DNA of 64,000 bases, taken from assembly GCF_003334335.1 (NCBI RefSeq), contig NZ_QOWQ01000022.1; one strand, written 5' to 3'. Source of the DNA: Escherichia coli (GTDB lineage: Bacteria > Pseudomonadota > Gammaproteobacteria > Enterobacterales > Enterobacteriaceae). Within the stretch, counting starts at the first letter, position 1; each line of letters begins with the position of its first letter. Below are positions 1,023 through 48,157 of this stretch, piece by piece. Position numbers and translations under genes: made by a program. The notes below the pieces were generated by a model that made no database searches, was not told the origin of the DNA, and saw only the letters and a program-made list of their open reading frames with translations.

Positions 1023-3305
<2,283 letters not shown>

Positions 3306-3359: not shown

Positions 3360-4217
3360 TTAATGGTGGTCGTTTTCACGCAGGTAAATGACCCAGTATG
3401 TCAACCCAACCAACAAACCACCACCGATAATGTTGCCGATCGTAACCGGAATCAGGTTATCAGTGATGAAATTCATCACGGTCAGGTGAGAAAAATTTTC
3501 CGGTGCAGAACCGACTGCGGTCCAAAATTCCGGGGATGCGAAGTCGCGGATTACAATACCCATCGGGATCATAAACATGTTTGCGATACTGTGCTCAAAA
3601 CCGCTGGCAACAAACATCGCGACCGGCAGCACCATAATGAACGCTTTGTCCATCAGGCTGCGGCCAGAATAACTCATCCATACTGCCAGACATACCATCA
3701 GGTTTGCCAGGATACCAAGACAGACGGCCTCAATAAAAGTATGGTGCACTTTGTGGTCGGCGGTTTGTAGGACGTTTAGTCCCCATTGACCATTTGCGGT
3801 CATATACTCGCCGGAAAGCCACATTAAAAGTACAAACAGCAGTGCGCCGACCAGGTTGCCAAAATAGACATTTAGCCAGTTTTTCGCCAACTGACCCCAG
3901 GTGATGCGCCCACTCGCCTTAGCAACAACAATCAACACGGTGGAAGTAAAGAGATCGGCTCCGCAGACAACACAAAGAATCAGCCCCAGAGAGAAGCAAA
4001 TGCCGCCAACCAGTTTTGCCATGCCGAAGGGCATTGTGCCTGTGCCAGTGGTTGCTGTGATATAGAAGACGAATGCGATTGAGATGAAAACACCGGCGGT
4101 AATCGCCAGATAGAAAGTCTTAAGCGGATGTTTCGTTGCTTTATAGACACCCGCCTCTTCGGCCACTTTGGCCATTGCAGCAGGAAGTAAAAGATCAAAA
4201 GGGTTGTCAGCTTTCAC
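3360..4217 (-). CDS. focA: formate channel FocA (FNT family), 285 aa, GTG start
   Basis: ORF 3360..4391(-) trimmed to the GTG (cac at 4215-4217 on + strand) preceding KADNPFDLL; polytopic membrane protein. Confidence 0.88.
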   Translation of the reverse strand: MKADNPFDLLLPAAMAKVAEEAGVYKATKHPLKTFYLAITAGVFISIAFVFYITATTGTGTMPFGMAKLVGGICFSLGLILCVVCGADLFTSTVLIVVAKASGRITWGQLAKNWLNVYFGNLVGALLFVLLMWLSGEYMTANGQWGLNVLQTADHKVHHTFIEAVCLGILANLMVCLAVWMSYSGRSLMDKAFIMVLPVAMFVASGFEHSIANMFMIPMGIVIRDFASPEFWTAVGSAPENFSHLTVMNFITDNLIPVTIGNIIGGGLLVGLTYWVIYLRENDHH

Positions 4218-35588: not shown

Positions 35589-35619
35589 TAAAAAAAACAG
35601 GACCAAAGTCCTGTTTTTT
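35589..35619 (-). terminator. intrinsic terminator after ompF (hairpin flanked by A-run and T-run, potentially bidirectional)
   Basis: AAAAAAAA-CAGGAC-CAAA-GTCCTG-TTTTTT. Confidence 0.7.
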
Positions 35620-36960: not shown

Positions 36961-37293
36961 ACACCGTCATATTTCCATAGAGACGTGATGATATTTACAG
37001 CAATTTTAATCTATTTATATGATTTCCTTATATTTAAATTAACTAAACGGAAATTTTGTTTCTGATGGAAACTTTATCGACCTGGCACAAAATCTTCTTT
37101 CAGACATCCAGAATGCCAAAAAATAGTATGAAAATTGTGCTATTAGCTAAGAAAAAACTAATCCGCAATAAGAATGCGGATTAGTTTTTGCGCGTAAATG
37201 TTGCAATGTAATATTCCGTAACAGGATGATCGTTATGGCGGGGTTGCAAATAGATTGCTTGACTTAACAAACAGATAACTTGACAGAAAAGAT

Positions 37294-37334: not shown

Positions 37335-38735
37335 TTAGAAGCTGGCGTTACGCGGAGTACGTGGGAACGGAATCACATCACGTACGTTTTGCACGCCAGT
37401 TACGTAAGCAATCAGACGTTCAAAACCAAGACCGAAACCTGAATGCGGAACAGTACCGTAGCGACGCAGATCGCGATACCACCAGTAATCTTCTTTATTC
37501 AGGCCCATTTCCAGCATACGCTCGTCCAGCACGTCCAGACGTTCTTCACGCTGGGAGCCACCAATGATCTCACCGATGCCCGGAGCCAGAACGTCCATAG
37601 CCGCAACGGTTTTACCGTCTTCGTTAAGGCGCATATAGAACGCTTTAATATCTTTCGGATAGTTTTTAACCACTACCGGTGCTTTAAAGTGTTCTTCCGC
37701 CAGATAACGCTCATGCTCAGAAGAGAGATCGACTCCCCAGTAAACCGGGTTTTCAAACTTCCTGCCGCAGTTTTCGAGAATGGTCACTGCGTCGGTATAA
37801 TCCACCTGCGCAAAATCGGCTTCAATGAAGCGTTCCAGACGTGAAACGGCATCTTTATCTACGCGTTCAGCGAAGAATTTCATGTCGTCAGCGCGTTCTT
37901 CGAGAACCGCTTTGAAGACATATTTCAGCATGGCTTCAGCCAGACCCGCAATATCGTTCAGGTTAGCAAACGCCACTTCCGGCTCCAGCATCCAGAATTC
38001 CGCCAGGTGACGGCTGGTGTTGGAGTTTTCAGCACGGAAAGTCGGGCCGAAGGTATAAATTTTGGACAATGCGCAAGCGTAGGTTTCGCCGTTCAACTGG
38101 CCAGATACGGTCAGGAAAGACTCTTTACCAAAGAAGTCTTTGTCGAAATCCACTTTGCCCTGATCGTTACGCGGCAGGTTTTCCAGATCCAGCGTAGAAA
38201 CGCGGAACATTTCGCCTGCACCTTCGGTATCAGATGCGGTAATCAGTGGCGTTGAAACCCAGAAGAATCCCTGCTCGTTAAAGAAGCGATGCAGCGCCTG
38301 CGCCAGCGTATGGCGAACGCGCGCGACGGCACCAATCAGGTTTGTGCGCGGACGCAGGTGAGCGACTTCACGCAGATACTCAATGCTGTGGCGTTTTGCC
38401 GCCATCGGGTAAGTGTCTGGATCTTCAACCCAACCAGCAACTTCAACCTTGCTGGCCTGAATTTCAAATTGTTGCCCCTGGCCCGGCGACGCCACGACTT
38501 TACCCGTCACAATGACCGAGCAGCCGGTGGTCAGACGCAGGACGTCTTCATTGTAATTGGGCAGAGAATTATTGATGACAGCCTGTACAGGATCAAAGCA
38601 GGAACCGTCATAAACGGCGAGGAAGGAGATGCCAGCTTTTGAATCTCGGCGGGTACGTACCCATCCGCGCACGGTGACTTCGCTGTCAACGGCTACACGG
38701 CCCTGGAGTACGTCGGCTACAGGCACAACGCTCAT
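37335..38735 (-). CDS. asnS: asparaginyl-tRNA synthetase, 466 aa
   Basis: ORF 37335..38780(-) trimmed to [14 protein letters not shown]. Confidence 0.95.
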
Positions 38736-38870
38736 AATATTCTCTCTGTTAATAGTCGGAAAAAATAAACACTTGTCCACCCGTAAATGGGGGGATACCT
38801 ATGTTACCTGGCATCTGCAATCAGACAAGCAGAATTCGCAAATGCAGCGAAAGATTTCGGAATTAAAGGT

Positions 38871-38895
38871 AAAAAAAGGGAGCCGATTAGCTCCC
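38871..38895 (-). terminator. intrinsic terminator after pncB
   Basis: minus-strand hairpin GGGAGC-TAATC-GGCTCCC followed by TTTTTTT. Confidence 0.7.
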
Positions 38896-38903
38896 TGATG
38901 ATA

Positions 38904-40106
38904 TTAACTGGCTTTTTTAATATGCGGAAGGTCGAACGCTTTGCGCAGCGCCCGAACAAACGCTTTATCATGGCAGATAGTTTTGCCAGGGCTGTCAGAA
39001 AGTTTCGCCACCGGTTTACCGTTACACTCTACCAACTTAATGACAATATTCAGGGGTTTTACCTGGGGGATATCGCAGGTCAGGCGAGTCCCAATACCAA
39101 AACTTAATTGCACGCGGGAAGAGAAGTGGCGGTATAGCTCAACCGCTTTGCGTAAATCCAGATTGTCAGAGAAAACCAGCGTTTTACTCTGTGGATCAAT
39201 TCCCAGCTTTTCATAATGTGCAATGGCTTTTTCACCCCATTCAACCGGGTCGCCAGAGTCATGACGCAGGCCCTGATACCGACTAGCGAACTCGACACCG
39301 AAATCACGCAGGAAAGCATCCATAGTGATGCAGTCGGTTAATGCAATGCCAAGTTGGTCGGGATACTCTTCCAGCCAGGCAGCAAGTGCAGCTCGCTGGC
39401 TGTTGGCTAGATCCGGGCTGATTTGCTGATGTGCCTGGAACCATTCGTGTGCCTGTGTTCCCATCGGCGTGAGGGAAAGCCGACGCGCCAGATCGTAGTT
39501 GCTGGTGCCCACAAACCAGGATTCCTGTTGCAGACGCTTAACGATGGTTTCTTGTACTTCGCGAGAAAAACGGCGACGGGTGCCAAAATCCATCAGATGG
39601 AAGCGCGACATATCAAGACCGGCGGTTAACGCCGAGAAGTCGACTAATTTGCTTTCCAGCGTGTCGAGGGCTTGCGCAACGTCGGCCTGCGGTGAGCGAT
39701 AGCGATGTACCATTTCACTGATAACCGCCAGCAAAGGAACTTCCCAGAGGATGACTTCACGCCACGGGCCGCTTAAACGAATATCCAGCTTGCCATTATC
39801 GTTGGACACGGTGACTTGTTCCGGGTTAAAGCGGAACTCGCGTAACCAGTTAAGATAGTCGGCCTTAAAGAAAGGCAGGGCAGAAAGCCACTGATATTCA
39901 TCATCCTGCAGGCGCAGGTGCTGCATCGCCTGAACCTGTTCACGAATAGCATCGGCATAAATACCCAGCAGATCGTCACCTCGGCAACGAAACTCCGCCG
40001 CGACATGCACATCGTAATAGTGATGAAACACGGCTTGCTGCATATGCAACTTATAAGCATCTGTATCCAGCAACGAGTGCAGAACAGGAGAAGCGAATTG
40101 TGTCAT
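38904..40106 (-). CDS. pncB: nicotinate phosphoribosyltransferase, 400 aa
   Basis: ORF 38904..40154(-) trimmed to [20 protein letters not shown]. Confidence 0.93.
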
Positions 40107-40371
40107 AGGTGCGCAGTAGCGTCCTCGTACAGGAGCGTTTAGTACAATAAACATCTTCAGGAACTGCTGGAGTATACCTTGTTTCGCAATTTATTGAACC
40201 CCGATCACACCATATGCCACCTTTCTGGTCGATGGCATTACGCGGTGTATGTTATAAAAATGTAGCAATAAAGGCGTTTGTACCTGAAAAGATGAAGATT
40301 CTGCATAGCGCGATTTACGCAACAGGAATAGACTGAACACCAGACTCTATAAAAGATGCTAAAGGTTATTT

Positions 40372-42984
40372 ATGACTCAACAGCCACAAGCCAAATACCG
40401 TCACGATTATCGTGCGCCGGATTACCAGATTACTGATATTGACTTGACCTTTGACCTCGACGCGCAAAAGACGGTCGTTACCGCGGTCAGCCAGGCTGTC
40501 CGTCATGGTGCATCAGATGCTCCCCTTCGTCTCAACGGCGAAGACCTCAAACTGGTTTCTGTTCATATTAATGATGAGCCGTGGACCGCCTGGAAAGAAG
40601 AAGAGGGCGCACTGGTTATCAGTAATTTGCCGGAGCGTTTTACGCTTAAGATCATTAATGAAATAAGCCCGGCGGCGAATACCGCGCTGGAAGGGCTTTA
40701 TCAGTCAGGCGATGCGCTTTGCACCCAGTGTGAAGCCGAAGGTTTCCGCCATATTACGTATTATCTCGACCGCCCGGACGTGCTGGCGCGTTTTACCACC
40801 AAAATTATTGCCGATAAAATCAAATATCCCTTCCTGCTTTCCAATGGTAACCGCGTTGCGCAAGGCGAACTGGAAAACGGACGCCATTGGGTACAGTGGC
40901 AGGACCCGTTCCCGAAACCGTGCTACCTGTTTGCGCTGGTGGCAGGCGACTTTGATGTACTGCGCGATACCTTTACCACGCGTTCTGGTCGCGAAGTAGC
41001 ACTGGAGCTGTACGTCGATCGCGGCAACCTTGATCGCGCGCCGTGGGCGATGACCTCGCTGAAAAACTCCATGAAATGGGATGAAGAACGCTTTGGCCTG
41101 GAGTATGACCTCGACATCTATATGATCGTCGCGGTGGATTTCTTCAATATGGGCGCAATGGAGAATAAGGGGCTGAATATCTTTAACTCCAAATATGTGC
41201 TGGCCCGCACCGACACCGCCACCGACAAAGATTACCTCGATATTGAACGCGTTATCGGCCATGAATATTTCCATAACTGGACCGGTAACCGAGTGACCTG
41301 TCGCGACTGGTTCCAGCTCAGCCTGAAAGAAGGTTTAACCGTCTTCCGCGATCAGGAGTTCAGCTCTGACCTTGGTTCCCGCGCAGTTAACCGCATCAAT
41401 AATGTACGCACCATGCGCGGATTGCAGTTTGCAGAAGACGCCAGCCCGATGGCGCACCCGATCCGCCCGGATATGGTCATTGAGATGAACAACTTCTACA
41501 CCCTGACCGTTTACGAGAAGGGCGCGGAAGTGATTCGCATGATCCACACCCTGCTTGGCGAAGAAAACTTCCAGAAAGGGATGCAGCTTTATTTCGAGCG
41601 TCATGATGGTAGTGCAGCGACCTGTGACGACTTTGTGCAGGCGATGGAAGATGCGTCGAATGTCGATCTCTCCCATTTCCGCCGTTGGTACAGCCAGTCC
41701 GGTACACCGATTGTGACCGTCAAAGACGACTACAATCCGGAAACCGAGCAGTACACCCTGACCATCAGCCAGCGCACGCCAGCCACGCCGGATCAGGCAG
41801 AAAAACAGCCGCTGCATATTCCGTTTGCCATCGAACTGTATGATAACGAAGGCAAAGTGATCCCGTTGCAGAAAGGCGGTCATCCGGTGAATTCCGTGCT
41901 GAACGTCACTCAGGCGGAACAGACCTTTGTCTTTGATAATGTCTACTTCCAGCCGGTGCCTGCGCTGCTGTGCGAATTCTCTGCGCCAGTGAAACTGGAA
42001 TATAAGTGGAGCGATCAGCAACTGACCTTCCTGATGCGTCATGCGCGTAATGATTTCTCCCGCTGGGATGCGGCGCAAAGTTTGCTGGCAACCTACATCA
42101 AGCTGAACGTCGCGCGTCATCAGCAAGGTCAGCCGCTGTCTCTGCCGGTGCATGTGGCTGATGCTTTCCGCGCGGTACTGCTTGATGAGAAGATTGATCC
42201 AGCGCTGGCGGCAGAAATCCTGACGCTGCCTTCTGTCAATGAAATGGCTGAATTGTTCGATATCATCGACCCGATTGCTATTGCCGAAGTACGCGAAGCA
42301 CTCACTCGTACTCTGGCGACTGAACTGGCGGATGAGCTACTGGCTATTTACAACGCGAATTACCAGAGCGAGTACCGTGTTGAGCATGAAGATATTGCAA
42401 AACGCACTCTGCGTAATGCCTGCCTGCGTTTCCTCGCTTTTGGTGAAACGCATCTGGCTGATGTGCTGGTGAGCAAGCAGTTCCACGAAGCAAACAATAT
42501 GACTGATGCGCTGGCGGCGCTTTCTGCGGCGGTTGCCGCACAGCTGCCTTGCCGTGACGCGCTGATGCAGGAGTACGACGACAAGTGGCATCAGAACGGT
42601 CTGGTGATGGATAAATGGTTTATCCTGCAAGCCACCAGCCCGGCGGCGAATGTGCTGGAGACGGTGCGCGGCCTGTTGCAGCATCGCTCATTTACCATGA
42701 GCAACCCGAACCGTATTCGTTCGTTGATTGGCGCGTTTGCGGGCAGCAATCCGGCAGCGTTCCATGCCGAAGATGGCAGCGGTTACCTGTTCCTGGTGGA
42801 AATGCTTACCGACCTCAACAGCCGTAACCCGCAGGTGGCTTCACGTCTGATTGAACCGCTGATTCGCCTGAAACGTTACGATGCCAAACGTCAGGAGAAA
42901 ATGCGCGCGGCGCTGGAACAGTTGAAAGGGCTGGAAAATCTCTCTGGCGATCTGTACGAGAAGATAACTAAAGCACTGGCTTGA
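40372..42984 (+). CDS. pepN: aminopeptidase N (M1 family), 870 aa
   Basis: ORF 40372..42984(+); HEYFHNWTGN zinc motif. Confidence 0.98.
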   Translation: MTQQPQAKYRHDYRAPDYQITDIDLTFDLDAQKTVVTAVSQAVRHGASDAPLRLNGEDLKLVSVHINDEPWTAWKEEEGALVISNLPERFTLKIINEISPAANTALEGLYQSGDALCTQCEAEGFRHITYYLDRPDVLARFTTKIIADKIKYPFLLSNGNRVAQGELENGRHWVQWQDPFPKPCYLFALVAGDFDVLRDTFTTRSGREVALELYVDRGNLDRAPWAMTSLKNSMKWDEERFGLEYDLDIYMIVAVDFFNMGAMENKGLNIFNSKYVLARTDTATDKDYLDIERVIGHEYFHNWTGNRVTCRDWFQLSLKEGLTVFRDQEFSSDLGSRAVNRINNVRTMRGLQFAEDASPMAHPIRPDMVIEMNNFYTLTVYEKGAEVIRMIHTLLGEENFQKGMQLYFERHDGSAATCDDFVQAMEDASNVDLSHFRRWYSQSGTPIVTVKDDYNPETEQYTLTISQRTPATPDQAEKQPLHIPFAIELYDNEGKVIPLQKGGHPVNSVLNVTQAEQTFVFDNVYFQPVPALLCEFSAPVKLEYKWSDQQLTFLMRHARNDFSRWDAAQSLLATYIKLNVARHQQGQPLSLPVHVADAFRAVLLDEKIDPALAAEILTLPSVNEMAELFDIIDPIAIAEVREALTRTLATELADELLAIYNANYQSEYRVEHEDIAKRTLRNACLRFLAFGETHLADVLVSKQFHEANNMTDALAALSAAVAAQLPCRDALMQEYDDKWHQNGLVMDKWFILQATSPAANVLETVRGLLQHRSFTMSNPNRIRSLIGAFAGSNPAAFHAEDGSGYLFLVEMLTDLNSRNPQVASRLIEPLIRLKRYDAKRQEKMRAALEQLKGLENLSGDLYEKITKALA

Positions 42985-42991
42985 TAAATAA

Positions 42992-43021
42992 CCGAATGGC
43001 GGCAATAGCGCCGCCATTCGG
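42992..43021. terminator. perfect 12-bp inverted repeat between convergent pepN and ssuB (shared terminator or REP-like hairpin)
   Basis: CCGAATGGCGGC-AATAGC-GCCGCCATTCGG. Confidence 0.6.
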
Positions 43022-43026
43022 GGAAT

Positions 43027-43794
43027 TTACCCCTGTTTTCTCAGGCGAGTTTCAGATTCACCACGTTGCATCACCCGTTGCAACACCTCCGCTTCCAGCT
43101 CCGCTAATCGCACCGACCCTAATCGACGCGGACGGGGGATATCCACTGTCAAATCCAGACCAATTTTTCCCTCTTCAATTAACAGCACCCGGTCAGCCAT
43201 CGCTACCGCTTCGCTCACATCATGCGTCACCAACAGTACGGTAAAGCCGTGCTCCTGCCAAAGTGACACAATCAAATCCTGCATCTCGAGTCGCGTTAAG
43301 GCGTCCAGCGCCCCGAGCGGTTCATCAAGCAACAATAATCCCGGTCGATGAATCAACGCTCTTGCCAGCGCCACTCGCTGTTTCTGCCCGCCAGAAAGTG
43401 CGGCAGGCCATTCCCCTGCGCGATTCTCCAGTCCTACCGCAGCCAACGCTCGACGTGCGGCATCGCGCCACTGGCCTTTAAGGCCTAACCCAACGTTATC
43501 AATCACCGATTTCCACGGTAGCAGACGCGCATCCTGAAACATCATTCGCGTGTCTTCCTGAATTTCAGCCAGCGGTGTGGTGCCCGCTAACACATCGCCT
43601 GCGGTTGGCGTTTCCAGACCTGCCAGCAGGCGCAGCAGGGTACTTTTGCCACCACCGCTGCGGCCCACCACCGCCACAAACTGACCTGCCGGAATATGTA
43701 AATCCAGTTGGTTCAGGACGATATTTTCCGCGTAATGTTTGCTTACTGCATTGAGCAACAATGGCGTGCCCTGGTTCAGACGAGCAGTATTCAT
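43027..43794 (-). CDS. ssuB: aliphatic sulfonate ABC transporter ATPase, 255 aa
   Basis: ORF 43027..43794(-); Walker [10 protein letters not shown]. Confidence 0.95.
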
Positions 43795-44582
43795 ACCGTG
43801 GCCTCCTTCAAATGATAAGCCGGGTTCCAGCGCAACCAGAGGCGCTCTAACAGCTGCGCGCTGACGTCAGCCAGTTTGCCGAGCAGGGCGTAAAGAATAA
43901 TAGCGACTACCACCACGTCCGTTTGCAAAAACTCCCGCGCATTCATCGCCAGATAACCAATGCCTGAATTGGCAGAAATGGTTTCGGCAACAATCAGCGT
44001 CAGCCACATCAGGCCCAACGCAAAACGCACGCCGACCATAATTGAGGGCAGGGCACCAGGCAGGATCACATGGATAAACAGCGGTATGCCGGATAATCCA
44101 TAGCTACGCGCCATCTCCACCAACCCGCGATCGATATTACGGATGCCATGCCAGGTGTTGATATAAATGGGGAATAGCGTACCGAGCGCCACCAGAAAGA
44201 TTTTTGCGGATTCATCAATGCCAAACCACAAAATCACCAGCGGGATCAGCGCCAGATGCGGCACGTTGCGCAACATCTGAATTGAGGTATCCAGCAGCCG
44301 TTCTCCCCAGCGAGATAGCCCGCTAATCAGTCCCAAAATCAACCCCAGCGATCCGCCAATTGAAAAGCCAATCAGCGCCCGCCAGGAGCTGATCGCCAGA
44401 TGCTGCCACAGTTCGCCGCTGGCGGAGAGCGTCCAGAACGCCGTCACCACTCCTTCCGGTGAAGGCAAAATACGCGTCGACAGCCAGCCAACCGAGGAGG
44501 CCAGTTGCCACACCGCCACGATGCCCACCGGTAAAAACCAGGGGGCAACGCGCAATAACCACTTCTTCACTGGCGTTGCCAT
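43791..44582 (-). CDS. ssuC: aliphatic sulfonate ABC transporter permease, 263 aa
   Basis: ORF 43791..44627(-) trimmed to [15 protein letters not shown]; 4-nt overlap with ssuB. Confidence 0.9.
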
Positions 44583-44592
44583 TATTTCTTCC

Positions 44593-45738
44593 TTAGCTTT
44601 GCGCGACTTTACGGGGGATAAAATCATTCGCCACCGCTTCGCCTTGCGGATTCAGCGGCTGCGGCTGGGGAATTTCCGGGATGGCGACATCCAGAAGCGG
44701 GAACAGCAACTCGCCAACCCGATACGCTTCTTCCAGATGCGGATAGCCCGAAAGCACAAAACTGTCGATGCCAAGCGCGGCATATTCGTTGATTCGCGCA
44801 GCGACCGTAGGACCATCGCCCACCAGCGCCGTCCCGGCACCGCCGCGCACTAAGCCAACGCCCGCCCATAAATTGGGGCTGATCTCCAGATTGTCGCGCT
44901 TGCCGTTATGTAACGCCGCCATTCGCTGTTGCCCTACGGAATCCGTCCGGGCGAATGCGGCCTGTGCTTTGGCGATAGTTTCATCATCAAGATGCGAGAT
45001 TAACCGCTCGGCGGCCTGCCACGCTTCGTCGTTAGTTTCACGAACAATCACATGCAGACGAATACCGAAACGAATTTTGCGTCCATGCGCGGCAGCTTTC
45101 GCCCGCACTTGTTCGATTTTCTCTTTAACCAGTTCCGGCGGTTCGCCCCAGGTGAGGTAGAGATCAACCTGTTCTGCCGCCAGCTCCTGGGCGACATCTG
45201 ACGATCCGCCAAAGTAAAGTGGCGGATACGGCTGTTGAATCGCCGGGAAGAGCAGTTTTGCTCCGCGCACATGAATATGTTTACCGTTGAAATCGACGGT
45301 TTCTCTCTGCAATAAACGCCGCCAGACCTGGGTAAATTCCGCCGAGGCTTCGTAGCGCTCGCTATGATCAAGGAACACTCCGTCGCCTGCCAGCTCTTGT
45401 GGATCGCTGCCTGTGACCAGGTTAAACAACGCACGTCCATTTGAGAGACGGTCAAGCGTGGCGGCCTGGCGGGCGGCAACGGTAGGTGAGGTTACGCTGG
45501 GACGCAGGGCGACAAGAAACTTCAGCCGCTGCGTCACCGGGATCATCGATGCGGCAACCAGCCACGCATCTTCGCAGGAGCGCCCCGTTGGAATTAGCAC
45601 ACCGGTATAGCCAAGACGATCCGCCGCTTGCGCAATTTGTTGCAGATAACCGTGATCAACCGGGCGTGAACCTTCTTCCGTTCCCAGATAATGCCCGTCA
45701 CCGTGGGTCGGTAAAAACCAGAACATATTCAGACTCAT
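44593..45738 (-). CDS. ssuD: FMNH2-dependent alkanesulfonate monooxygenase, 381 aa
   Basis: ORF 44593..45738(-); [19 protein letters not shown]. Confidence 0.96.
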
Positions 45739-46694
45739 AATTGTTTTCCTTCCAGTTGAGTGGGCTGCCAGATGCGCTGGCGAATATCGACTTTTTTCGG
45801 CACCAGACGATTTTCATAAAACAGATCTGCCGTTTGCTGCTGTAAGGCGGCAACCTCGGCGTTAACCGGTTTGATGGTGGTAGGAGGGCGATGATCTAAG
45901 TAAGAGGCAATCACCGGTGCCGGTAAGCCCATCGTTTTTGCCAGTAAAGCGATGCTTTGCTCGCGCTGGCTGCGGGTTAACGCATCGGCCTCACTAAAGG
46001 TTGCCAGTACGCCCTGAATAAAAGCGCCGTTTTTTTCTGCATAGGGACGAGCTGCCAGATAAAACGATCCAGTTTGATTGAGATCGGTGCCGTCTTTCAG
46101 CACCCGCACGCCGCCCTGTAATAATGCAGCAGAGTAGTAGGGATCCCAGATAGCCCAGGCGTCAACGTTACCTTGCTGGAACGCGGCGCGGGCATCAGCG
46201 GGCGTCAGGTAAGTGGGTTGGATATCGGTAAACTTAAGTCCGGCCTGACGCAGTGCACGCAGTAAAAGGTTGTGTGAACTGGAACCTTTCTGAAAGGCAA
46301 CTTTGTGACCTTTAAGATCGGCTACGGTTTTGATCGGGCTGTTTTCTGCCACCAGAATCACTTCGGCTTTGGGCTTCGGTGGCTCGACGCCCACGTACAC
46401 CAAATCAGCCCCGGCAGCCTGGGCAAAGATTGGCGGAATATCCCCGGTACTGCCGAGATCAATACTGCCAACGTTTAACGCTTCCAACATTTGCGGACCC
46501 GCGGGGAACTCCACCCAGGAGATTTTTGATTCCGGATAGCGTTTTTCCAGTAACTGGTGGCTTTTTGCCAGCACCATACCAATACTGCCTTTCTGATAGC
46601 CTATACGTAACGCTTCAGGCGAGGATTCTGCAGCAACCGCAAAAGTAGAGACGCTAAGCAATCCCGCCAGCGCCAGTTTAATGATGTTACGCAT
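45735..46694 (-). CDS. ssuA: aliphatic sulfonate periplasmic binding protein, 319 aa
   Basis: ORF 45735..46736(-) trimmed to [14 protein letters not shown]; overlaps ssuE stop. Confidence 0.9.
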
Positions 46695-47262
46695 GGGCAT
46701 TACCTCGCAGAGACAGAAGGTCAGGAACCTGAACATCGCGGCGGTGCAATGCCTGCCAGAAAGTTTCTAGCGCGGTATCAAGACGGGTTTGCAGATTTGG
46801 CGTGAACTGGGGTCTGTGATGGTAATCAATTACTTGTGAGTCATCGGCAAACACGCCGTGCAGGATCTCCTGAGCTTTCAGTGCGCTTAAAACTGGTTTA
46901 AGGGCATAATCGACCGCCAGCAGATGGGCCACGGTACCGCCCGTCGCCAGCGGTAGCACCACTTTGCCTTGCAAAGCGCGTTCTGGCAGCAGGTCGAGCA
47001 GGGTTTTCAACGCACCGGAATAGGCGGCTTTATACACAGGCGTGGCGACAATCAGCCCATCGGCCTGTTGCAGCTGTTCGGTGAAGGTCTTGAGTGCCGG
47101 ACTATCGAAACGAGCATAAAGTAGATCTTCCGGGGCGAAGTTTTGCAGATTCCAGTGATAAACCTCTACATCCAGGCCATTTAGTTTTTCCCGCGCATAT
47201 TCCAGCAAGGAGCTGGAGCGAGAAGGAAAGCGAGGACTACCCGCCAGGGTGATGACACGCAT
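46687..47262 (-). CDS. ssuE: NADPH-dependent FMN reductase, 191 aa
   Basis: ORF 46687..47262(-); first gene of the ssuEADCB operon. Confidence 0.95.
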   Translation of the reverse strand: MRVITLAGSPRFPSRSSSLLEYAREKLNGLDVEVYHWNLQNFAPEDLLYARFDSPALKTFTEQLQQADGLIVATPVYKAAYSGALKTLLDLLPERALQGKVVLPLATGGTVAHLLAVDYALKPVLSALKAQEILHGVFADDSQVIDYHHRPQFTPNLQTRLDTALETFWQALHRRDVQVPDLLSLRGNAHA

Positions 47263-47617
47263 ACTCTCTCCTTATAACCAATTGTTCTTTTTTTGTTAAC
47301 ATTGATAACAATTCGGTCAGTCTGTCGGAGAGACAAGAAAATTCCAAATATAAATTTTGTGTATCTTTTTCTGAAAATAAACTAAAGAAAGGGCTTTATA
47401 TATCACGCATATTTATTTATTGGATAGTCATTAGATGTTGAATCAATGAATTACTCGTTCAGTTAATATTTAAATATTCATGAAATCTATAAATTAAAGA
47501 TTTGTCACTTATTGGATTTAGTATGCTTGATTTAAATGGCGGACAATTATTGTTATTATTAAGTCTAATGTCATTTAAAGGCATTATCATATTTACGAAG
47601 AGATCAGGATGATAACG
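47263..47617. promoter_or_regulatory. AT-rich divergent control region between ssuE and elfA
   Basis: 355 bp of strongly AT-rich sequence between divergent operons. Confidence 0.5.
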
Positions 47618-48157
47618 ATGAAAAAAAGTGTATTGACGGCGTTTATAACTGTGGTATGTGCAACGTCCAGCGTTATGGCTGCTGATGATAATGCTATCAC
47701 GGATGGCTCAGTAACATTTAATGGTAAAGTTATTGCTCCAGCTTGTACCCTGGTAGCTGCGACGAAAGATTCCGTGGTGACTTTGCCAGATGTTAGTGCC
47801 ACGAAGTTGCAAACCAATGGTCAGGTTTCTGGCGTGCAAATTGATGTGCCAATTGAATTAAAAGATTGTGATACTACCGTAACAAAAAATGCAACGTTCA
47901 CCTTTAATGGCACTGCGGATACTACTCAGATTACAGCGTTTGCTAACCAGGCCTCATCTGATGCTGCTACAAACGTGGCCCTGCAAATGTATATGAATGA
48001 TGGTACAACGGCCATCACGCCAGACACAGAAACCGGGAACATTTTGTTGCAGGATGGAGATCAGACGTTGACTTTTAAAGTTGATTATATCGCTACGGGG
48101 AAAGCGACTTCAGGTAATGTGAATGCGGTAACAAATTTCCATATTAACTATTATTAA
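47618..48157 (+). CDS. elfA: fimbrial major subunit-like protein, 179 aa
   Basis: ORF 47609..48157(+) trimmed to MKKSVLTAFITVV; signal peptide; C-terminal aromatic residue typical of pilins. Confidence 0.88.
   Translation: MKKSVLTAFITVVCATSSVMAADDNAITDGSVTFNGKVIAPACTLVAATKDSVVTLPDVSATKLQTNGQVSGVQIDVPIELKDCDTTVTKNATFTFNGTADTTQITAFANQASSDAATNVALQMYMNDGTTAITPDTETGNILLQDGDQTLTFKVDYIATGKATSGNVNAVTNFHINYY

Follow-up and report, generated by a model that had tools for sequence, protein, structure and literature searches.

The perfect hairpin located between the convergent genes pepN and ssuB of Escherichia coli is probably a shared but asymmetric 3'-end element of two convergent transcription units, serving the ssuEADCB operon as an intrinsic terminator and pepN as a leaky terminator or trimming stop that is backed by Rho. 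On the minus strand, the 12-bp GC-rich stem followed by UUAUUUAU would act as a Rho-independent terminator for ssuEADCB, with a U-tract that is templated by the pepN stop codons and the ATAA next to them. In plus-strand RNA, where the poor tail GGAAUUUA follows the stem, the hairpin would halt only part of the polymerases; the remaining ones would enter the C-rich untranslated RNA antisense to ssuB, where Rho would stop them within ~270 nt, and 3'-to-5' exonucleases would trim the Rho-terminated pepN transcripts back to the hairpin. The two routes, i.e., termination in place and trimming, would thus lead to the same stable pepN 3' end 2–4 nt past the stem.

The features of the locus are collected in Table 1 in the coordinates of the window, that is, of the whole 64-kb stretch of DNA that was analysed. 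The 11-kb stretch around the hairpin is identical to the E. coli K-12 MG1655 genome (NC_000913.3), and the addition of 950250 to a window coordinate gives the genome coordinate. The stop codons of pepN and ssuB are convergent and separated by a 42-bp gap, inside which the hairpin is located with its stem starting 5 nt past the ssuB stop codon. The 12-bp-stem hairpin described in the earlier note for this gap was recovered with the same sequence, coordinates and fold. Eight of the 12 pairs of the stem are G-C, and an RNA hairpin can be formed from both strands. The folding energy, proposed there as a check, bore this out: the 30-mer has a dG of -24.1 kcal/mol with z-scores of -6.3 for the plus strand and -6.6 for the minus strand, and none of 200 shuffled sequences was as stable. 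In the longer minimum-energy fold, the A-rich 5' flank (TAAATAA) pairs with the U-rich 3' flank (AATTTA) and extends the stem; such pairing of the flanks beyond the stem is typical of two-way terminators.

Table 1 Features of the pepN–ssuB locus (window coordinates, unless MG1655 is named)
Feature	Position	Strand	Remarks
pepN (aminopeptidase N), monocistronic	40372-42984	+	stop TGA 42982-42984; TSS MG1655 990591 (window 40341)
A-rich stretch TGATAAATAA	42982-42991	-	pepN stop TGA, in-frame TAA, then ATAA; templates U-rich tail UUAUUUAUCA of the predicted ssuB-strand terminator
Perfect 12-bp stem with 6-nt loop, CCGAATGGCGGC-AATAGC-GCCGCCATTCGG	42992-43021 (MG1655 993242-993271)	either	
Weak tail GGAATTTA	43022-43029	+	overlaps ssuB stop codon 43027-43029; holds published pepN 3' ends 43023 and 43025
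ssuB, last gene of the ssuEADCB operon	43027-43794	-	stop TAA (TTA on + strand) 43027-43029
RNA rich in C and poor in G, antisense to the 3' end of ssuB	43030-43290	+	likely rut-like; Rho region ~43287

Structures of this kind are rare in the window. A search for perfect inverted repeats with a short loop and arms of 12 bp or more returned only three over its whole length, including the hairpin under study, against a chance expectation from base composition of ~0.023 per 64-kb window and ~5e-6 per 42-nt gap. A scan of positions 42000–44000 with the Rfam covariance models, accepting E values up to 10, returned no family at the hairpin. In the other two perfect hairpins, located at 37153-37189 and 35592-35619, the arms themselves contain runs of A and T (AAAAACTAATCCGCA...TGCGGATTAGTTTTT and AAAAAACAGGAC...GTCCTGTTTTTT, respectively), by which these hairpins would be classed as classical two-way terminators; the hairpin between pepN and ssuB, unlike them, has no A/T runs in its arms. 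Note that the hairpin at 35592-35619 has next to it a minus-strand 3' end (985842, window 35592) that Term-seq lists as 'orphan' and that lies just downstream of ompF.

The RNAs made from the two strands differ greatly in what follows the stem. The minus-strand RNA continues with UUAUUUAUCA, in which six of the first eight nucleotides are U, and the T-tail weight, calculated as a decaying weight modelled on that of d'Aubenton-Carafa, is 3.09 on the ssuB strand vs 0.33 on the pepN strand. Moreover, a terminator consensus scan of 10 kb (38000-48000) returned the hairpin as the top minus-strand site, with 13 pairs counted and the tail TTATTTATCA. So, the earlier statement on the flanks, which denied both of them a strong U-tract, turned out to be wrong for the ssuB side. 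Both a GC-rich stem-loop just after the last gene, with a loop inside the usual 3-8 nt, and a U-rich tract directly past it, where one of ~7-9 nt is expected, are present on this strand; as far as its sequence goes, the hairpin is a classical intrinsic terminator for ssuEADCB, and we infer that transcripts of the operon terminate here.

Induction of the ssu operon, through Cbl and CysB, is known only from sulfate starvation. The Term-seq and SMRT-Cappable-seq tables, compiled from media in which ssu should be unexpressed, contain no minus-strand 3' end near 99323x-99324x, and the absence of an ssuB 3' end from these published maps is attributed to the repression of ssu under the conditions used. 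According to at least one paper, ssuB has no annotated termination site, and the ssuEADCB operon gains a predicted terminator that is missing from the annotation described there.

The situation on the pepN strand is different. The tail GGAAUUUA / GGAAUUUACC has U at only three of its first eight positions, so that a U-tract in the sense required for an intrinsic terminator is lacking. At the same time, the pepN 3' end has been mapped at the hairpin by two methods. A 'primary' pepN 3' end at 993275 (+), window 43025, is given in the Term-seq data (Adams et al. 2021, Supplementary file 1), where it appears three times in a file of three condition tabs, and where the printed sequence ends with ...CAUUCGGGGAA, 4 nt past the stem. 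SMRT-Cappable-seq of cells grown in rich medium (Yan et al. 2018) detected a monocistronic pepN transcript extending from 990591 to 993273 (window 43023), 2 nt past the stem, with the end flagged as 'novelTTS'; 29 reads end at this point, and 10 of 39 pass it with a median read-through of 41 nt. The 2-nt difference between the two data sets may reflect the fact that a terminal genomic A and an added poly(A) tail are inseparable in SMRT-Cappable-seq. The published pepN 3' end lies at GGGGAA, 2–4 nt past the stem and outside any U run. The locus has no entry in the TERMITe supplements. The weak U-tract noted earlier for the pepN side is borne out by the low T-tail weight. The published 3'-end maps by which the idea of a 3'-end element could have failed for pepN place its ends at the hairpin with only partial read-through. 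The alternative raised in the earlier note, a 3'-end stabiliser or non-classical terminator, fits pepN, given the weak tail, the end at the hairpin, the partial read-through and the Rho region downstream; on the ssuB strand, the element with its U-rich tail is classical by sequence.

A second candidate for the pepN terminator was considered and rejected. This small hairpin, GGGG-AAUUUA-CCCC followed by UGUUUUCU (43019-43045, plus strand), was a site of the terminator scan; its 5' G residues are those of the large stem, the minimum-energy fold does not contain it, and the published Term-seq and SMRT-Cappable-seq tables contain no 3' end at ~993290-993295. Separately, the Term-seq list of Adams et al. 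includes an 'orphan' 3' end at window 40349 (MG1655 990599, plus strand), which precedes the start codon of pepN by 23 nt; this end lies only 8 nt past the SMRT-Cappable-seq start at 990591 and has a Rho score of ~1.0 and an intrinsic-terminator score of 1.3.

A Rho-sensitive region lies downstream of the hairpin. In the bicyclomycin experiment of Adams et al. (Supplementary file 2), a Rho termination region antisense to ssuB was assigned to 993537 (+), window ~43287, i.e., ~265 nt downstream of the hairpin, where the count of downstream reads, 19 without bicyclomycin, reached 135 in its presence (Rho score 5.8, p 5e-11); the score was taken over 800-nt windows, so that part of the bicyclomycin signal could start at a promoter inside the antisense ssuB sequence instead of stemming from pepN read-through. 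The 200 nt of plus-strand RNA next to the hairpin, taken in 80-nt windows, have C/G ratios of 1.7-3.4, values that reach or exceed the 95th percentile for the whole 64-kb stretch, and the segment from 43030 to 43290 is likely the tract at which Rho is loaded.

These data have to be weighed against the possibility that the hairpin never terminates pepN transcription, all ends being produced by Rho downstream, while the hairpin would do no more than block PNPase and RNase II and so set the mature 3' end. Such a possibility is rather unlikely in our estimation, and yet several observations agree with it: the tail GGAAUUUA is poor, and it is poorer still in some strains (AGAACUUA); the 3' end is at GGAA, outside the U run; and the Rho region and the C-rich tract are located downstream, in agreement with the model of Dar and Sorek. 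However, the extension of 10 of 39 reads by a median of 41 nt would be given just as well by a roughly 75% efficient terminator, very stable hairpins can terminate partially despite weak U-tracts, and steady-state data fit both explanations. Some direct, leaky termination of pepN at the hairpin is likely, because ~74% of the full-length reads (29/39) already end there. In the asymmetric two-strand element that we favour, the pepN ends would be divided between the two routes, and the GGGGAA end itself could arise by termination at +7/+8 with later trimming, or entirely from Rho-terminated RNA shortened to the hairpin.

The comparison of strains carrying the hairpin indicates which parts of the element are kept. 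In a non-random sample of 10 alleles chosen across identity classes, one of the 30 hairpin columns was variable (G-C to G-U) vs 9 of the 21 flank columns (Fisher p 7e-4). No double changes were found within E. coli, and 11 of the 12 pairs are invariant, which is too little variation for covariation to be informative. The tail on the pepN side varies among strains (GGGGAAUUUA, GGGAAUUUA, GGAGAAUUUA, GGAGAACUUA and GGGGAUUUUA), and its U-richness is not kept. The O157:H7 variant has a 14-bp stem and a T-tail weight of 1.92 on both sides. Additionally, two loci (L091 and L094) carry a C-to-T change in the 3' arm at window 43019, which gives a G-U pair in the pepN-strand RNA and a C-A mismatch in the ssuB-strand RNA; therefore, the hairpin is weakened on one strand only in these strains.

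Two further observations concern individual strains. In strain 23GD11002 (L092:2540-2560, 3880-3905; window 43020-43033), the hairpin is immediately followed by an IS4-family element annotated as IS421; the insertion has duplicated 12 bp of target, GGGAATTTACCC, and its target, GGGG-N6-CCCC, matches the IS186 target consensus. In strain 23CRST031 (L095:61-90), a hairpin with a near-identical core, AATGGCGGC-AATTAC-GCCGCCATT, is located between the long-polar-fimbria genes lpfB and lpfA1; the blastn E value of ~5 makes a chance match possible.

The hairpin is not the only occupant of this gap in the species. Of 5426 complete E. coli genomes, 3166-3173 (~58%) carry it, always as a single copy, and the hypothesis that it is a dispersed repeat was rejected by megablast and blastn searches over the 5426 genomes together with a search within the window. 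In 2228 genomes (~41%), one to three REP/BIME units are present in the gap instead, with spacers of 97-307 bp, and the repeats of this BIME allele match a median of 34 places per genome. The two alleles differ in a block that extends from the pepN stop codon into the last ~45 nt of ssuB (window 42985-43070; BIME examples L001:386-591, L002:386-482 and L006:2005-2311), so the SsuB tails encoded by them are equal in length and different in sequence (13 residues with the hairpin vs RRGHSEQLIRRHG with the BIME). Other Escherichia species, as far as their representatives show, have the BIME form as well. A search for the donor of the K-12-type ssuB tail returned no candidate, the best match being 73% identity over 48 nt. 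In one BIME-carrying strain, CB7286 (L003:1600-3021), IS1397 is inserted inside the first REP, which fits the reported specific targeting of REPs by this element (PMC1525189); IS1397 was seen in the BIME allele only.

A search of genome contigs for the PepN C-terminus provided 80 loci, and the 59 Enterobacteriaceae loci with convergent pepN and ssuB were compared. All 59 gaps, of 37-350 nt, hold one or more predicted stem-loops, which are strong with few exceptions, and the gap sequences in other Enterobacteriaceae are mostly unrelated, non-homologous palindromes. This suggests that the slot between pepN and ssuB needs a hairpin, not one particular hairpin. The exact arm of the hairpin was seen in none of the species representatives examined outside E. 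coli. Raoultella terrigena (L077:2004-2058) and Citrobacter (L022, L024, L029, L035 and L038) have hairpins in the orthologous gap with CCGAA/GGCGG...GCCGCC motifs, as in K-12, which outscore 194-200 of 200 random palindromes of equal composition, and the R. terrigena hairpin would represent one U-A to G-C double change if it were homologous. Homology of the Raoultella and Citrobacter hairpins was discarded as a conclusion, the similarity being too short to establish it.

These comparisons bear on the origin of the hairpin, for which a decayed or 'perfected' REP-like palindrome with no selected function beyond that of any stable hairpin may be imagined. One mismatch and one indel separate the arm CCGAATGGCGGC from the REP core CCGGATGCGGC, and the arm also resembles the Citrobacter element GCCGGATAAGGCGGTAACGCCGCCATCCGGC from the same locus; several spacers outscore 198-200 of 200 random palindromes of equal composition, and true BIMEs occupy the site in the alternative E. 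coli allele and in other Escherichia species. Nevertheless, we consider the relic hypothesis doubtful. The hairpin is single-copy wherever it is present, lacks GTAG, and is a perfect rather than an imperfect palindrome; the MG1655 annotation shows no repeat here; the similarity is short and GC-rich and may be convergent; and the stem is conserved relative to its flanks. Note that a REP origin would be compatible with a present terminator function, i.e., with the asymmetric element described above. A wider evolutionary scenario is offered with little confidence: the ~90-bp block, comprising the hairpin spacer and the last ~13 ssuB codons, may be a foreign or very old haplotype that replaced an apparently ancestral BIME in ~58% of E. 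coli, the alleles and the K-12/O157 sub-variants may differ heritably in pepN mRNA stability and in the insulation of pepN from ssu, and the hairpin could be a descendant of a REP, now immobile and perfected into a terminator. Whatever its origin, the dimorphism of hairpin vs BIME could be suitable for a natural comparison of a dedicated hairpin with a REP as 3'UTR elements.

A different role for the second transcription unit is assumed by the collision type of bidirectional terminator, in which RNA polymerases running in from pepN and from ssuB would collide head-on at the stem-loop and thereby yield precise ends (Ju et al. 2019; Wang et al. 2022 preprint). The arrangement of the locus, convergent genes with a common stem-loop in a 42-bp gap, is what would be expected in this case; according to the Wang et al. 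2022 preprint, a stem-loop is required to place collisions between gene boundaries, and the O157:H7 variant is symmetric, both in its 14-bp stem and in the T-tail weights of 1.92 on each side. However, the K-12 allele is strongly asymmetric (3.09 vs 0.33), and cells grown in LB, M63 glucose or rich medium, in which ssu should be silent, still give the precise pepN end, which therefore does not need collisions. We therefore judge the collision mechanism very unlikely. That the palindrome acts at the DNA level, as the site of a dimeric protein, a cruciform or a recombination site, rather than as an RNA element, is extremely improbable: in spite of the perfect 12-bp inverted repeat and the IS4-family element inserted right beside it in one strain, an RNA 3' end lies at the base of the hairpin, the location is between two stop codons and far from any promoter, 12-bp arms with a 6-bp spacer are atypical of operators, and the IS insertion is explained by the adjoining GGGG-N6-CCCC motif, not by the hairpin.

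The asymmetric 3'-end element can be compared with three known systems. The first is that of the intrinsic and bidirectional terminators, the latter being shared between convergent genes (Ju et al. 2019; Wang et al. 2022 preprint). The hairpin resembles them in its GC-rich stem, its 6-nt loop, its position directly after the stop codons, and its flanks, A-rich on the 5' side and T-containing on the 3' side, which give a hairpin with a tail in the reading of either strand. As in bidirectional terminators, a stem-loop is located between convergent stop codons and flanked by A- and U-tracts, the mapped end being that of the plus strand only. At the same time, the two sides are very unequal in K-12 (3.09 vs 0.33), whereas those of O157:H7 are equal.

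The second system is represented by the protective stem-loops of Dar and Sorek 2018 (PMC6061677), who described steady-state 3' ends located just after stable stem-loops without a U-tract, with enrichment of C over G downstream and trimming by PNPase and RNase II. The pepN strand matches this class in the lack of a U-tract, in the 3' end after the stem, in the excess of C over G and in the bicyclomycin-sensitive read-through downstream. Exonuclease trimming would apply to the pepN hairpin by analogy. The difference from this class is that ~74% of the pepN full-length reads end at the hairpin.

The third system, the REP/BIME repeats, occupies the same genomic slot, presumably in the same role, and has a loosely similar stem. 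In the Harris et al. 2026 preprint, REPs are reported to be dual terminator-stabilisers, and the variable occupancy of sites by REPs among strains is recognised. However, REP/BIME repeats are dispersed in many copies, whereas the hairpin has one locus per genome, the 'two places' matched being the two strands of the palindrome; a REP is an imperfect palindrome with a GTAG head, whereas the hairpin is perfect and has no GTAG on either flank. The best local alignment of the hairpin with the REP consensus covers 12-13 nt only and includes a gap. So, the hairpin is not a REP, and the loose likeness of the stems makes an origin from one possible.

Overall, the hairpin is an ordinary element of a known kind, and the pepN 3' end, which it explains, is already contained in published genome-wide tables. 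One hairpin with two roles depending on the strand would make a textbook case, of little importance beyond careful annotation, in which features of the intrinsic terminators on the ssuB side are combined with those of the protective stem-loops on the pepN side.
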